Positions 39,428 through 45,372 of a DNA stretch of 64,000 nt are shown in pieces. The translations under genes were made by a program, and so were the position numbers. Source of the stretch: a virus; the IMG/VR virus record IMGVR_UViG_3300022602_000001. One strand, written 5' to 3'. The first letter of the stretch is position 1. Every line of letters starts with the position of its first letter. The notes beneath the pieces were generated by a model. The model searched no databases and was not told where the DNA came from. It was given only the letters and a program-made list of their open reading frames with translations.

Positions 39428-40284
39428 CAACGCAAGAGAGACTAAACCTCATAGAGGACTTCATAGACTTTGCCTCCAGCCACCTCAAGATAGAGAAGCT
39501 GCCAAAGATGACCTTCATATCAGACAAGAGCTGGGTGCTGGCAAGGCACAGCTTCGGCGAATACAACAACCAGAGCAGGTCGATCGTTATGTACATAGCA
39601 AACAGGAACTTGGCCGACGTGCTGAGGACGCTTGGCCACGAGCTGACTCATCACAGGCAGAACGAGCTGGGCCTTCTTTACACAAAGTCGGGAGAGACGG
39701 GATCTCCAGTGGAAGACGAGGCAAACATAGTGGCCGGAATCCTGATGAGGGAGTTTGGAAAGAGGAACGAGCTGATCTACGAAGGAGTCAGAGCAGAATT
39801 TTTGAGGCTCCTGCTCGAGGAAGAGGAACCCTTCTACTCACTGGACCCTGCTTCACACAGGAGACCCAAGGAGGAAAAAGAAAAGAATTATAACATAGCA
39901 ATACAAAAGAGGATAGCTGACTACATCAAAAATGGATCTGAGGGAGATCTTGATCTGGCAGGTACGACAATAACCTACCTTCCCGACAGTTTAAAAGTTG
40001 TAAAAGGGACTCTTTGGTTGAGAGACTCAAAAATAAAAAAGCTTCCAAACAATCTAACAGTAAAATTAAGTATATGGTTAAGTGGCACTCCAATAACAAA
40101 GCTACCCGACGGGCTATTTGTAGAAAGAATTTTAGATGTGTCAGACACAGATATAATCGAGTTGCCAAAAGATTTAAAAGTTGGGGGATCTTTTTATTTG
40201 TCTAATACACCAATGTCAAAAAAATACACAGAAGAACAGATAAAAGAAATGTGTCCTGGCATAAAGGGAATCATTTTCATGTAA
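39424..40284 (+). CDS. Zincin metallopeptidase-like domain + LRR cassette 1 (4 repeats)
   Basis: TLGHELTH...EDEAN, then LLLEEEE.YSLDP cap, LRRs and CPGI.G.IFM end. Confidence 0.8.
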   Translation: MTTQERLNLIEDFIDFASSHLKIEKLPKMTFISDKSWVLARHSFGEYNNQSRSIVMYIANRNLADVLRTLGHELTHHRQNELGLLYTKSGETGSPVEDEANIVAGILMREFGKRNELIYEGVRAEFLRLLLEEEEPFYSLDPASHRRPKEEKEKNYNIAIQKRIADYIKNGSEGDLDLAGTTITYLPDSLKVVKGTLWLRDSKIKKLPNNLTVKLSIWLSGTPITKLPDGLFVERILDVSDTDIIELPKDLKVGGSFYLSNTPMSKKYTEEQIKEMCPGIKGIIFM

Positions 40285-40296
40285 AAAAATAAAAAA

Positions 40297-40866
40297 ATGA
40301 AAGAGACAGTTTTGAAGAGGGAGTTCACAAAGAAAGACGTGAACAGGATGAGAAACATAATTCTGAACAGGTCTGGAGACAGGACTCAGGTTCTGGCCGG
40401 CTGGGAAAATAGCACAAAGGAACATCAAGAGGGGGACGTGTGGGAGGAGCACGGAAAGAAGTGGACCATATCAAACGGAATAAAGCAGACGGTCACCAAG
40501 CTGGACAGCCTGAAGAGGATGGTCGTGCTGCCAATGGCGTGTCCAAAGTGCAAAAAGCCAATGAGGCTGGACTCTCTAAACAAAAAAATGTACGGGATAC
40601 ACGGAGTGTGCTTCGACTGCACAATAGAAGCGGAGGCGGAGATAAAGAGGCAGGGAAAGTGGGAGGAGTACGTAAACTTTCAAAGGAACTCAAACAAGAA
40701 CTCAGAGCTGGACGACCTAGAAAAGAGGGTGGAGTCATGGCTGAACCAGAGGGACACTTTTGTTTCTGAGGCGGGGGACGTGGAAAGTTGGTCCGAGGGA
40801 GACAAAAAGAAGATGTACGAGGAGGTAAAACAGTGGATATCCCAGCAGAAGGAACAGAGCCTCTGA
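40297..40866 (+). CDS. Conserved Zn-finger phage protein
   Basis: EGDVWEE.GK.W, CPKC...CFDC. Confidence 0.8.
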   Translation: MKETVLKREFTKKDVNRMRNIILNRSGDRTQVLAGWENSTKEHQEGDVWEEHGKKWTISNGIKQTVTKLDSLKRMVVLPMACPKCKKPMRLDSLNKKMYGIHGVCFDCTIEAEAEIKRQGKWEEYVNFQRNSNKNSELDDLEKRVESWLNQRDTFVSEAGDVESWSEGDKKKMYEEVKQWISQQKEQSL

Positions 40867-40867
40867 G

Positions 40868-40875
40868 ATATTTAT
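40868..40875 (+). promoter_or_regulatory. ATATTTAT putative late promoter
   Basis: Upstream of LRR gene 2. Confidence 0.55.
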
Positions 40876-40897
40876 AAAAAATAAAAAATCCTGTTTG

Positions 40898-42586: not shown

Positions 42587-43090
42587 ATGATGAAACTGTC
42601 AAACATACTGAGAATTTTGTTGGAGGCCGAGGAACAGTCTTACTCTTTAGACCCTATATCGCAAAGAAGGTCCAAGGAGGAGAAGGAGAAAAGATATACG
42701 GCAATAATCCAAAAGAAGATTTCTGATTACATAAAGAATGGATCTGAGGGAGACTTGGATCTGTCAGGTGAGCCAATAACTAAGTTGCCTGAAGATTTAA
42801 AAGTAGTAAAAGGTACTTTAAACTTAACAAATACATCAATAACAAAGCTGCCCGACAATTTAAGAGTGCTAGGATTTTTGTATTTGACACATTCCAAAAT
42901 AACAAAGCTTCCAAACAATCTTAAAGTAGGGGGAAATCTTCGTTTGCCATATACACCAATAACAGAACTTCCTATTGGGCTTGAGATAGAAGGAAATCTA
43001 TATTTGTATGAAACTCCAATAGCAAAAAAATACACAAAAGAACAGATAAAACAAATGTGCCCTGGTATACAGGGAAACATTTTCATGTAA
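42587..43090 (+). CDS. LRR protein 3 (4 repeats)
   Basis: Start reassigned to ATG 42587; same caps. Confidence 0.85.
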   Translation: MMKLSNILRILLEAEEQSYSLDPISQRRSKEEKEKRYTAIIQKKISDYIKNGSEGDLDLSGEPITKLPEDLKVVKGTLNLTNTSITKLPDNLRVLGFLYLTHSKITKLPNNLKVGGNLRLPYTPITELPIGLEIEGNLYLYETPIAKKYTKEQIKQMCPGIQGNIFM

Positions 43091-43104
43091 AAAATAAAAA
43101 AACC

Positions 43105-43854
43105 ATGAACGAAAAACCAACCAACCAAAGATCAAAGTATCTCATTCTTATAAAAGAGAACATAAAGCAGGCAAAGGGGTACCTGGAGCAGGGAAAAATA
43201 TCAAAGGAGGACCTGGAAAAGCTCATCCAGGCGGACCCAACCAAGCAAAAGAAGTACGTCGGTTGGATGGCAAAGTCGTACATAAATAATCACACGGACT
43301 TAGACGACTTGAGAAATACCGTAGAGGAGTACAACAACTTTTTGAACAGGGGAAAGGCAAAGACAAAGGACGTAAACCAGTTCAAGTCCTTCAAGGACAT
43401 GAAGGACGAGGTGGAGGAGCTGAACAACTCTGGAGAGGCCTACTCCTCAAAGGAGCTGGAGAACGACTACGACACTTTCTACGACGACAACAACCTTCTG
43501 GTCTGCAGCCCTCACACCCACGAGGCATCAAGGAAGCTGGGACTGTCGAAGTTTGCCTTCAGGGACTGCCCCGAGGGAAAGGACTCGGCGTGGTGCACTA
43601 CATACAAGTCGCCCGACCACTTCAACGACTACTACTACAACAATGACGTACACTTCTACTACATAAGGGTGAGGTCAAAAAAGCTCATCGAAAAACTGCA
43701 GAGCGAGTTCCCTTCCAGGTACAAGGAGCTTGAGGTCGTTGCGCTGGCAGTTCTTCCAAACGGAACCATCGACGCTTACGACGGGCTGGACAAGCAGATC
43801 AGCAGCGGAGACCAAAAAAAGTACCTAAATGCAATAAACCTGTCCGTGAAATGA
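43105..43854 (+). CDS. Putative head-internal protein with DPT/WCT motifs
   Basis: LIKE leader; ADPT..KY..W, KD.NQFK, P.T.EAS..LG, WCTT. Confidence 0.7.
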   Translation: MNEKPTNQRSKYLILIKENIKQAKGYLEQGKISKEDLEKLIQADPTKQKKYVGWMAKSYINNHTDLDDLRNTVEEYNNFLNRGKAKTKDVNQFKSFKDMKDEVEELNNSGEAYSSKELENDYDTFYDDNNLLVCSPHTHEASRKLGLSKFAFRDCPEGKDSAWCTTYKSPDHFNDYYYNNDVHFYYIRVRSKKLIEKLQSEFPSRYKELEVVALAVLPNGTIDAYDGLDKQISSGDQKKYLNAINLSVK

Positions 43855-44663
43855 AAAGAGGAGCACTGAGCTTGCTGAGGGTCCTGCTAGAGGCAGAGGA
43901 ACCGATCTATTCTCTTGATCCCGCCTCTCACAGGAGGACCAAAGAAGAGAAGGACAAGAACTACAAGATAGTAACCCAAAAGACGATAGCCAAATATATA
44001 AAGAATGGCTCTAAGGGAGACTTGAATCTTTCATCGATGACAGTAGTAACTAAGCTTCCAAACAATTTAAAATTTGTTGGAGGAAATCTTAATTTAAGTG
44101 GAACATCAATAACTGAATTGCCTGATGGACTTGAGGTAGAAGGAATCTTAAACTTGCTCAGGACTAAAATAACAAAACTGCCTGAAAATTTATCGGTAAA
44201 AGGAAGTTTACTTTTAGACGAAACACGAATAACCAAACTTCCTAAAAATCTAACAGTTGGAGGAAGTCTTTGGTTGAGAGACACACCATTAACCGAGCTT
44301 CCTAATGGACTTACTGTAAAAACAAATTTGTTTTTAAACTACTCCAAAATAACCAAGCTTCCCAATGATCTAAAAGTGGGAGGAGGTATTTTTTTAGGAA
44401 ATACTCCAATAACAGAACTTCCCAAAGGACTTGAAGTAAATGGAGATTTAGAATTGAATTTTTGCAATAAAATAAATAAACTTCCTGATAATTTAAGTGT
44501 CAAAGGAAGTCTTAAATTGAATGATACATCAATACGTGAGCTTCCAAAAGATTTAAAAGTAGAAAGAGGTGTTTATTTATTTTTTACTTTAATCTCAATA
44601 CGTTACACAAAAGAACAGATAAAACAAATGTGTCCTGGCATACAGGGAAGCATTTACATGTAA
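43851..44663 (+). CDS. LRR protein 4 (9 repeats)
   Basis: Same caps, nine units. Confidence 0.85.
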   Translation: MKRGALSLLRVLLEAEEPIYSLDPASHRRTKEEKDKNYKIVTQKTIAKYIKNGSKGDLNLSSMTVVTKLPNNLKFVGGNLNLSGTSITELPDGLEVEGILNLLRTKITKLPENLSVKGSLLLDETRITKLPKNLTVGGSLWLRDTPLTELPNGLTVKTNLFLNYSKITKLPNDLKVGGGIFLGNTPITELPKGLEVNGDLELNFCNKINKLPDNLSVKGSLKLNDTSIRELPKDLKVERGVYLFFTLISIRYTKEQIKQMCPGIQGSIYM

Positions 44664-44679
44664 AAAACAGTACTGACGA

Positions 44680-45372
44680 GTGAAAAATGAACTTTCAAAC
44701 ATACTTAAAGCACTTATAGAGGCAGAGGAGCCTTCCTACTCCATCGACCCTGGATCCCAAAGAAGGTCAAAGGAAGAGAAGGACAAGAGACGTAGAGCAA
44801 TAATCCAAAAGAAGATTGCCGACTACATAAAGAATGGCTCTGAGGGAGACTTGGATCTGTCAGGAACACAAATAACTAAGTTGCCTGAAGGACTTACAGT
44901 AGTTGGAGGTGATTTAAACTTAAGAAGCTCTAAAATAATAAAACTTCCTAATAATTTAAAATTTGTGGGAGGAAATCTTATTTTATTTTTTACATCAATA
45001 ACCGAGCTACCTGACAATTTAAAAGTGGGAGGGACTCTTTTGTTAAATAATAGAACGCCAATAACTGAACTGCCTGATGGACTTGAAGTGGGAAGAGATC
45101 TCGACTTGTGGAGATCTGAAATAACTAAACTACCTGACAATTTAAAAGTGGGTATAGATTTAATTTTATCAAATACACCAATAAAAAATTTACCTTCTGG
45201 TTTATCAGTGGGAGGAGTCCTGTATTTAGAAGAAACTTCAGTTTTTGAAATTCCAAAAGACATTAAAGTGCGTGGAGCCGTGAGATTATTTAATACACCA
45301 ATAGCAAAAAAATACACGGAAGAACAAATAAAACAAATGTGTCCTGGAATACAGGGGAGCATATACATGTAA
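44680..45372 (+). CDS. LRR protein 5 (7 repeats)
   Basis: Same caps, seven units, GTG start. Confidence 0.85.
   Translation: MKNELSNILKALIEAEEPSYSIDPGSQRRSKEEKDKRRRAIIQKKIADYIKNGSEGDLDLSGTQITKLPEGLTVVGGDLNLRSSKIIKLPNNLKFVGGNLILFFTSITELPDNLKVGGTLLLNNRTPITELPDGLEVGRDLDLWRSEITKLPDNLKVGIDLILSNTPIKNLPSGLSVGGVLYLEETSVFEIPKDIKVRGAVRLFNTPIAKKYTEEQIKQMCPGIQGSIYM

Follow-up and report, generated by a model that had tools for sequence, protein, structure and literature searches.

The tag by which the internal proteins of phage T4 are loaded into the head has the sequence MKTYQEFIAE. These proteins are basic, measure ~8-20 kDa, bind DNA at low salt and are made with propeptides of 10-19 residues, which are removed by the prohead protease gp21 through cleavage after the Glu of an L/I-x-E site (PMC9026906). 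The first 10 residues of IPIII suffice for packaging, with residues 4 and 7 functioning in targeting and residues 8 and 10 in processing, and gp21 itself has an LIE ending at its own residue 9, 'LIE-9' (PMC9026906). In the T-even phages the internal proteins constitute a diverse defence-countering set sharing only the targeting sequence (PMC3012670), of which IPI* is injected and blocks a restriction enzyme of the host (PMC3012670, PMC9026906). Here we describe a stretch of viral DNA of 64,000 nucleotides (IMG/VR record IMGVR_UViG_3300022602_000001; this whole stretch is termed the window below), which encodes five leucine-rich repeat (LRR) proteins with a short N-terminal leader, i.e. their first 10-14 residues, ending in L/I-x-E. 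As this leader resembles the T4 head-loading tag, the LRR proteins are probably injected cargo.

The five genes are borne on the + strand by open reading frames (ORFs) at 39424, 40898, 42587, 43851 and 44680, which have a common N-cap and C-cap. Their N-terminal block contains the invariant residues L5, L8, E10, E12, E13, Y16, S17, D19 and P20, followed further on by Y45, I46, K47, N48, G49, S50, G52, D53, L54 and L56, while the common C-terminal block reads YT..QIK.MCPGI.G.I.M. Between the caps a regular expression counts 4, 6, 4, 9 and 7 modules respectively, with a spacing of 20-21 residues. The resulting 30 units conform to the pattern ..L.L..T.I..LP..L.V, with near invariant Leu/Ile/Val positions and a Thr at the Asn position. 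In the 22 units of exactly 20 residues the framework positions 1, 4, 5, 8, 10, 16 and 19 have an entropy of 0.3-0.9 bits, whereas positions 13, 15, 17 and 18 (the x of xLxLxx) are the most variable (2.8-3.4 bits), with Tyr, Trp, Phe, Asp, Asn and Ser frequent among their residues. Block alignment and module counts delineate LRR unit 1 (39790..40284, + strand; 4 modules), which is fused to a peptidase domain, LRR gene 2 (40898..41524, +; 14-residue leader, 6 modules), gene 3 (42587..43090, +; 13-residue leader, 4 modules), gene 4 (43851..44663, +; leader, 9 modules) and gene 5 (44680..45372, +; leader, 7 modules), each with both caps. By analogy with the gene at 44680, the GTG at 40898 is a more likely start for gene 2 than the TTG at 40895. 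A six-frame hidden Markov model (HMM) scan of the 64 kb recovered exactly five family members and no further fragment.

A structure of LRR gene 3 predicted with AlphaFold2 (AF2) from a 56-sequence alignment has a mean predicted local distance difference test score (pLDDT) of 90 and a predicted TM-score (pTM) of 0.80. In this model a cap helix spans residues 30-50, the xLxL positions form short strands and the C-cap is helical, while the leader is a low-confidence helix (residues 4-18, pLDDT ~60) set apart from the solenoid. Structural comparison with VIA-align returned LRR proteins almost exclusively among its top 50 matches (Z 13.3 down to 8.6), the best being Leptospira LSS11580 (Z 13.3, root-mean-square deviation 2.7 over 122 residues), followed by IpaH1.4 (Z 10.3) and YopM (Z 9.7). 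Foldseek against the PDB gave only E > 1e-3, yet every match was an LRR, with chains of lamprey-type variable lymphocyte receptors (VLRs) among the weak ones. The predicted fold is an LRR solenoid with 20-residue repeats of the bacterial type, which in the model is closed by the helical N-cap and the conserved C-cap. Each protein is best explained as a binding scaffold in which the concave residues (module positions 13, 15, 17 and 18) are free to change. These results uphold the initial annotation, which had proposed five LRR proteins with constant caps, 4, 6, 4, 9 and 7 modules and hypervariable xLxLxx positions.

No Pfam family reached its cut-off for any of the five proteins (LRR_1, LRR_4, LRR_14 and LRR_3 gave just E 0.04-0.7), and no curated family model for them was found, with PHROGs returning only weak matches to 21719 and 2028, both of 'unknown function'. 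In contrast, a sequence search with gene 5, limited to the near-length class, recovered 1249 relatives with the same leader, N-cap, modules and C-cap. A typical member of ~155 residues consists of MIKLLDILKE-NKILVPRRSPEERQKNY, the N-cap, four modules and TPLSKKYTKEQIKQMVPGVKGNIY. The Atlas clusters of the family are 94-100% Uroviricota and among 77 IMG/VR loci up to 8 copies occur inside 20 kb, pointing to a large, unnamed, almost purely viral family that is often multi-copy per phage. The closest homologue (P0001) is 62% identical, and in an exact look-up the fused protein was the only one present in the sequence collection. A tblastn search of 50,697 phage records gave a sole match, to Edwardsiella phage Edno5, and showed no homology to T4 IPI, IPII, IPIII or Alt or to any other T-even phage protein; in the literature searched, likewise, nothing relevant emerged on LRR proteins inside phage heads or in virions. 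Long relatives fuse the LRR to PcfJ, ArdC-N plus MPTase-PolyVal, CTP_transf_like, DUF5824 and other conflict domains, and neighboring genes in the relatives match DUF5661, DUF5856, DUF5872 and ART-PolyVal. These associations place the LRR among proteins that mobile elements use on cell entry.

The diversification of the concave face was examined in ten close orthologous pairs of LRR genes, from other phages. Concave positions differ at 47 of 224 sites (21%) between orthologues, versus 37 of 961 at the other repeat positions, 28 of 570 in the N-terminal region and 12 of 234 in the C-cap (4-5%). The pooled nonsynonymous rate (dN) at concave positions is 0.112 against a pooled synonymous rate (dS) of 0.065, while the dN/dS ratio (omega) is 0.52 for the framework, 0.19 for the N-cap and 0.36 for the C-cap. 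In these alignments substitutions between close orthologues are concentrated on the concave face, where dN exceeds dS, in line with the diversification anticipated in the initial annotation. One pair with 11 modules (L046:909-1811 versus L073:9953-10855) has 85% identity and differs at 45 codons nonsynonymously and at 16 synonymously; its nonsynonymous changes fall nearly all at module positions 13, 15, 17, 18, 9 and 20 and use a few T-ending codons (AAT, GAT, TAT, CAT, AGT, GGT and ACT).

The consensus of the leader across the family is M-I-K-L-x-D/N-I/L-L-x-E, with hydrophobic residues at positions 4 (Leu), 7 (Ile/Leu) and 8 (Leu) and with a Glu at position 10 in 63 of 65 distinct leaders. 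In the window it takes the form MKxxxSNILRxLLE followed by AEE, with the L-L-E at positions 12-14. A regular expression for the leader matched the N-terminus of 95 of 1375 non-overlapping ORFs across the loci, of which 70 are LRR proteins and 25 are not, but just 2 of 4879 internal Met residues in the same loci. The non-LRR carriers include a Zeta_toxin-like kinase, DUF5824, DUF6934 and an NT5C-like protein, and in a syntenic 159-kb relative (L002) MIKLxDILxE also begins a Zeta_toxin-like kinase and several other unrelated proteins. The same relative contains an LRR gene split into overlapping ORFs of 143 and 67 residues (14559-15174), which is probably a frameshifted copy. One complete genome has two or three leader types (MIKLxDILxE, MKKSELRQIIKEE and MKLVQLYKQIKEE) distributed over many genes, which directly precede those for portal, protease, scaffold and capsid; several such types can replace one another on a given set of cargo families ahead of the head module. 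The codons of the conserved leader Ile and Leu vary widely and the DNA upstream of the leader is not conserved, implying selection on the peptide rather than on a DNA site; in two complete genomes exact matches to the leader DNA pattern numbered 5 each, every one of them on the coding strand, whereas the control gave 0.

Within the window the form [ILF]L[RKQ]xL[LI]E[AE][EDS] has 6 matches, i.e. the five LRR units and the gene at 46095, against 0 in 50 shuffles. Two non-LRR genes of the window carry a leader. The first (42123..42575, + strand) encodes an unrelated Cys-rich protein of 150 residues with a GTG start, whose IKLLRLIEE corresponds to the family-consensus MIKL-type leader and whose homologue (L014:8220-8681) begins with MIKLSTLLNEE. 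The second (46095..46646, +) encodes an unrelated protein of 183 residues in which the regular expression detects a window-type leader (NNRLLQILLEADS). The leader is, by its distribution, a portable tag carried by unrelated proteins, putatively an address tag, and not a part of the LRR fold. The initial annotation had proposed an L-x-E leader for packaging, and this idea is much strengthened by the presence of the tag on unrelated proteins, by the T4-like positions 4, 7, 8 and 10, and by its co-occurrence with an S77 protease.

This protease, a T4 gp21-type prohead protease (Peptidase_S77; 58730..59368, +; Pfam E 3.7e-27), is the presumed leader-removing enzyme. Its N-terminus is MISKQLLIE, such that an LIE ends at residue 9, and an S77 protease is found in 4 of 5 larger related records, both complete ones included. 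The LRR family has a median isoelectric point (pI) of 9.1 and mature sizes of 17-28 kDa, the mature form of the fused copy having a pI of 6.9. As for the time of expression, a promoter-like motif, ATATTTATW, occurs in 11 copies versus 0.71 expected from shuffling (positions 1473, 10611, 18788, 27625, 31122, 37707, 40868, 48114, 55561, 57360 and 59408), all intergenic and oriented toward the downstream gene. It lies upstream of three tail or baseplate genes, three head genes and gene 48136, and twice in the LRR cluster, once upstream of the first gene of the cluster (ATATTTATT; 37707..37715, +) and once ~20 nt upstream of LRR gene 2 (ATATTTATA; 40868..40876, +). The T4 late promoter TATAAATA was not found on the coding strand upstream of the LRR genes, the enriched motif reading ATATTTATW instead. 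This motif is a candidate late promoter of this phage group, and its sharing suggests that the LRR cluster is co-regulated with virion genes; its occurrence before tail and head genes fits the late expression that had been proposed for the LRR genes.

The gene at 39424 (39424-40284) is a true in-frame fusion of a ~130-residue HExxH domain to an LRR unit. The N-terminal domain (39424..39819, +) is related in its predicted fold to zincin-like metallopeptidases of the ImmA/SprT/Wss1 type. Its HExxH motif (H72, E73, H76) is invariant in 47 sequences, its AF2 model has a pLDDT of 88.7, and fold comparisons recovered SPRTN (Z 8.9), Wss1 (8.3), PprI (7.3) and the ArdC peptidase domain (6.8), with abylysin in the same range; these fold scores are only moderate and the Pfam matches are below threshold. 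The model indicates a minimal zincin metallopeptidase fold with the HExxH on a helix, which bears out the peptidase fusion noted initially. At the joint a motif scan identified an internal copy of the leader (FLRLLLEEE; 39799..39825, +), with its L-L-E as a putative protease site, and this region aligns with the C-terminal tail of standalone peptidase homologues. These homologues have 132 residues, are 85-89% identical to the domain and are encoded on contigs of 65-182 kb whose synteny with the window extends from primase to portal. The same contigs (29-31% GC) have no LRR gene in the region syntenic with the cluster. Given that these closest relatives lack LRR genes there, the LRR genes are lineage-specific insertions at five sites and the fusion is itself lineage-specific; the LRR genes are accessory. 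A sister strain seen in two samples (91% nucleotide identity to window positions 39080-40035; L089:453-1046 and L090:347-940) has the same fusion. Between window and sister strain the peptidase part shows 1 nonsynonymous and 13 synonymous differences, and the LRR N-cap 14 and 15 respectively.

Taken together, these features can be accounted for if the five LRR proteins are head-packaged, protease-trimmed and injected binders, a reading whose chances we judge to be about even and in which we infer packaging, cleavage, injection and targets by analogy with the T4 internal proteins. The LRR genes would be transcribed together with the virion genes, and the leader would dock each protein onto the prohead scaffolding core. 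The S77 prohead protease would then cleave after the Glu of L-L-E and before the Ala, and the basic mature proteins of 17-28 kDa would stay with the packaged DNA and enter the cell alongside it. Once inside the cell their targets might be host proteins, with defence factors and other variable ones as the most plausible candidates. In the case of the fused gene the same cut would part a small zincin peptidase from its LRR partner.

Several observations weigh against this reading. The window leaders are 13-14 residues long and have Ile rather than Glu at position 10, placing L-L-E three residues past the family-consensus site; one of them is internal, in the fusion, whereas T4 tags are N-terminal; and L/I-x-E is a short motif that often arises by chance. 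The fused copy of the sister strain has TAG in place of the module 1 Trp codon TGG, a nonsense codon implying that at least this copy is dispensable. The dN/dS signal comes from 10 pairs of which 2-3 dominate, and within-gene repeat exchange could inflate it at the concave positions. Literature searches turned up no proteomic or experimental data on this phage or on members of the LRR family. Furthermore, a leaderless LRR subfamily, typified by near-identical repeats and an extra C-terminal domain, is represented in the early-left operon of the temperate lambda-like Edwardsiella phage Edno5 (L001 4965-5708), between cI and exo/recT, and by a tandem pair (L088:1927-4138) in an element with ArdC-N plus MPTase-PolyVal, toxin-antitoxin genes, Gp49/HTH and a DNA polymerase III beta subunit. 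The existence of this subfamily indicates that the LRR function itself needs no packaging.

It is in the light of these leaderless relatives, lying among early accessory genes in Edno5 and next to ArdC/MPTase and toxin-antitoxin genes elsewhere, that the best-surviving alternative has to be considered. According to it the LRR proteins are intracellular host-takeover or anti-defence binders that are never packaged, and the leader is an amphipathic localisation helix or serves in turnover or in assembly with a common partner. The location of the window cluster directly after primase and SbcCD on the same strand, and the weakness of L/I-x-E as a motif, would also agree with such a role. However, this leaves unexplained why the tag is strictly N-terminal, 10 residues long and with its L-x-E at the T4 processing positions, why among the records examined it is confined to phages with an S77 protease, and why it clusters just upstream of the head module; the ATATTTATW motif common to tail and head genes is also at odds with it. 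We therefore rate it as possible but rather unlikely, and below packaging and injection.

Less probable still, and in our estimate improbable, is that the LRR proteins are generic basic internal head proteins that condense DNA or assist its ejection, as proposed for T4 IPII and IPIII, with no specific host target and with variability reflecting weak constraint. Their median pI and mature sizes would be appropriate for this, given the basic, DNA-binding character of the ~8-20 kDa T4 internal proteins (PMC9026906), and the sister strain does tolerate a nonsense mutation. Against this, it is the concave face that changes most, with dN exceeding dS, and purifying selection acts on the framework and caps; uniform relaxation would give a different pattern. 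Moreover, Tyr, Trp, Asp, Asn and Ser abound at the concave positions, an LRR scaffold would be an unusual choice for charge neutralisation, and the mature fused copy has a pI near neutrality.

The base composition of the cluster bears on a further alternative. The GC content at third codon positions (GC3) is 0.17-0.29 in the modules, 0.30-0.35 in the C-cap, 0.45-0.55 in the leader and N-cap and 0.57-0.72 in the interleaved genes, with the break located at the GDLDL / ITKLP junction between N-cap and modules. As GC1 and GC2 are similar between the modules and the interleaved genes, the AT-richness of the modules is an effect at synonymous sites. The AT-richness of the modules, remarked upon in the initial annotation, is confirmed by these values, and the copies, which are interleaved between unrelated genes as it had noted, are compositionally foreign. 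A low GC3 as an intrinsic property of the LRR family was considered and rejected: the Edno5 homologue has a GC3 of 0.59 and its modules 0.7-0.8. The combination of a resident-like N-cap with AT-rich modules amounts to compositional chimerism and fits the import of module arrays from an AT-rich phage pool (median GC 31.5%). No donor above ~70% nucleotide identity was found among the 77 IMG/VR loci and the relatives, and for this reason module import is here only a possible origin. Strong mosaicism at the level of single units was not found either, there being one close pair of units (B1/E1, 93% nucleotide identity), with the next best at <=78% and a median of 55%.

Foreign composition, together with the absence of LRR genes from the closest relatives, the sister-strain nonsense allele and the split copy in L002, could be taken to mean that these are recently acquired and largely neutral passenger cassettes (morons) that move between phages, some of them decaying. 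This is difficult to reconcile with the strong conservation of caps and framework over >1000 members (omega 0.19-0.52), with the intactness of all five window ORFs and with the recurrence of multi-copy arrays in many phages, and we regard it as quite unlikely. The least probable proposal, which we consider very unlikely indeed, is programmed diversification of the modules, either by VLR-like somatic cassette assembly or by mutagenic retrohoming of the diversity-generating retroelement (DGR) type: constant caps, a variable module number and some orthologue pairs in which nearly all differences lie at concave codons, taken from a small NNT set, speak for it, but the ORFs are complete with no cassettes, extra copies or template-like near-copy in 64 kb, the best repeat pair (93%) lacks adenine-specific mismatches, the concave codons of the window are diverse (TGG, TTT, GAA and TCA included) with a median unit identity of only 55%, and T-ending codons are expected in AT-rich genes. 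VLR-like assembly was accordingly rejected on the basis of the five complete ORFs, with no partial cassettes or extra fragments in six frames. A DGR was rejected as no second locus of the window closely resembles a module in blastn; beyond the window no search for a reverse transcriptase was made. The lamprey VLR comparison made in the initial annotation hence holds for the architecture and not for the mechanism, these being five germline genes with neither cassette assembly nor a DGR-type template.

With respect to its wider context, the window is part of a distant T4-like myophage. Its major capsid protein (60806-62521) is gp23-like and shares 53% identity with its counterpart in Flavobacterium phage immuto and 50% with the one in Microcystis phage Mel-JY01, and the window also encodes a T4-type portal, a split large terminase and baseplate genes in addition to the gp21-type protease. 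The LRR cluster follows primase and SbcCD on the same strand with nearly no intergenic space and precedes the terminase; it had been placed within the head-protein block, which is imprecise, as it is directly upstream of the head module and outside it. Megablast of the cluster region against the 50,697 phage records gave no match. The large terminase is split into two ORFs (48812-49423 and 50459-51892), with a 316-residue ORF (49437-50387) between; it is split also in the relatives L082-L084 and is a single 533-residue gene in L080. The portal ORF (51907-55557) has 1216 residues, against 633-642 in close and more distant relatives, and as its PHROG portal matches fall in two parts (residues 53-114 and 557-810) it contains a large insertion, possibly an intein or an added domain. 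The window has a GC content of 44% and a core-gene GC3 of ~0.6, whereas its closest syntenic relatives (L080-L085) are at 29-31% GC; protein identity to these is 85-89% with a nucleotide identity of just 65-70%, which constitutes a large compositional shift inside one phage lineage.

Returning to the reading of the LRR proteins as injected binders, a broader version of it, which we offer tentatively and consider unlikely as a whole, would be that a germline repertoire of LRR binders is maintained as a counter-immune panel by T4-like phages from AT-rich aquatic lineages. A leader and N-cap adapted to the lineage would address the binders to the capsid, module arrays would be exchanged among phages and the positively selected concave face would inhibit variable host defences on DNA entry; such exchange would explain the presence of AT-rich modules on resident GC-rich N-caps. 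If the LRR proteins are indeed packaged and injected, they would form a very large unnamed class of phage cargo, with >1000 members and often several per genome, built on a programmable binding scaffold in which the fastest change is on the binding face. This would widen the idea of T4 internal proteins from three idiosyncratic proteins to a modular binder repertoire and would imply many unknown host targets, likely defence systems. In T4-like phages that are not model systems, the 10-residue leader with its L-x-E site might also be worth trying as a tag for packaging.

The architectural and contextual features of these proteins are reminiscent of several known systems. Like the T4 internal proteins (IPI, IPII, IPIII and Alt) they have a short N-terminal tag shared by unrelated, poorly conserved and mostly basic small proteins, with hydrophobic residues at 4, 7 and 8, Glu at 10 and an L/I-x-E site, in phages whose S77 protease has an LIE near its own N-terminus and whose content of such genes varies among relatives. 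They differ in lacking homology to the T4 proteins and in being a multi-copy repeat family with modular length variation; in addition, the window leaders are longer, with one internal to a fusion, the tag occurs on many more families, and packaging is here something that we infer. With the bacterial 20-residue LRR effectors (YopM and IpaH/SspH) and the Leptospira LRR proteins they have in common repeats of 20-21 residues with an LP pair and a solenoid, and in YopM and IpaH/SspH the LRR serves as the module that binds the target and is delivered into another cell. The phage proteins differ from these in a Thr for the ladder Asn, other caps and the absence of an NEL ligase or effector domain. 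The lamprey and hagfish VLRs likewise combine constant caps with LRR modules that vary in number and in their concave residues. However, a VLR arises by somatic assembly, in which flanking cassettes complete an unfinished germline gene, and its LRRNT/LRRCT caps are disulfide-bonded, while the phage LRRs are complete germline genes with helical caps containing one Cys and vary between genomes, not within an individual. Comparable to the polyvalent proteins of phages and conjugative elements (Iyer et al. 2017, PMC5512222), in the description of which LRR domains are named 0 times (PMC5512222), are the long relatives fused to PcfJ, ArdC-N plus MPTase-PolyVal and DUF5824, and the fused gene of the window with its minimal zincin peptidase joined to an LRR; the window domains differ in being mostly separate small genes with leaders of their own, rather than parts of one giant polypeptide. 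Among these systems the cargo resembles most closely, by analogy, the T4 internal proteins, and there is in our judgment an even chance that it is such a system with a diversifying family of LRR binders as its main cargo.

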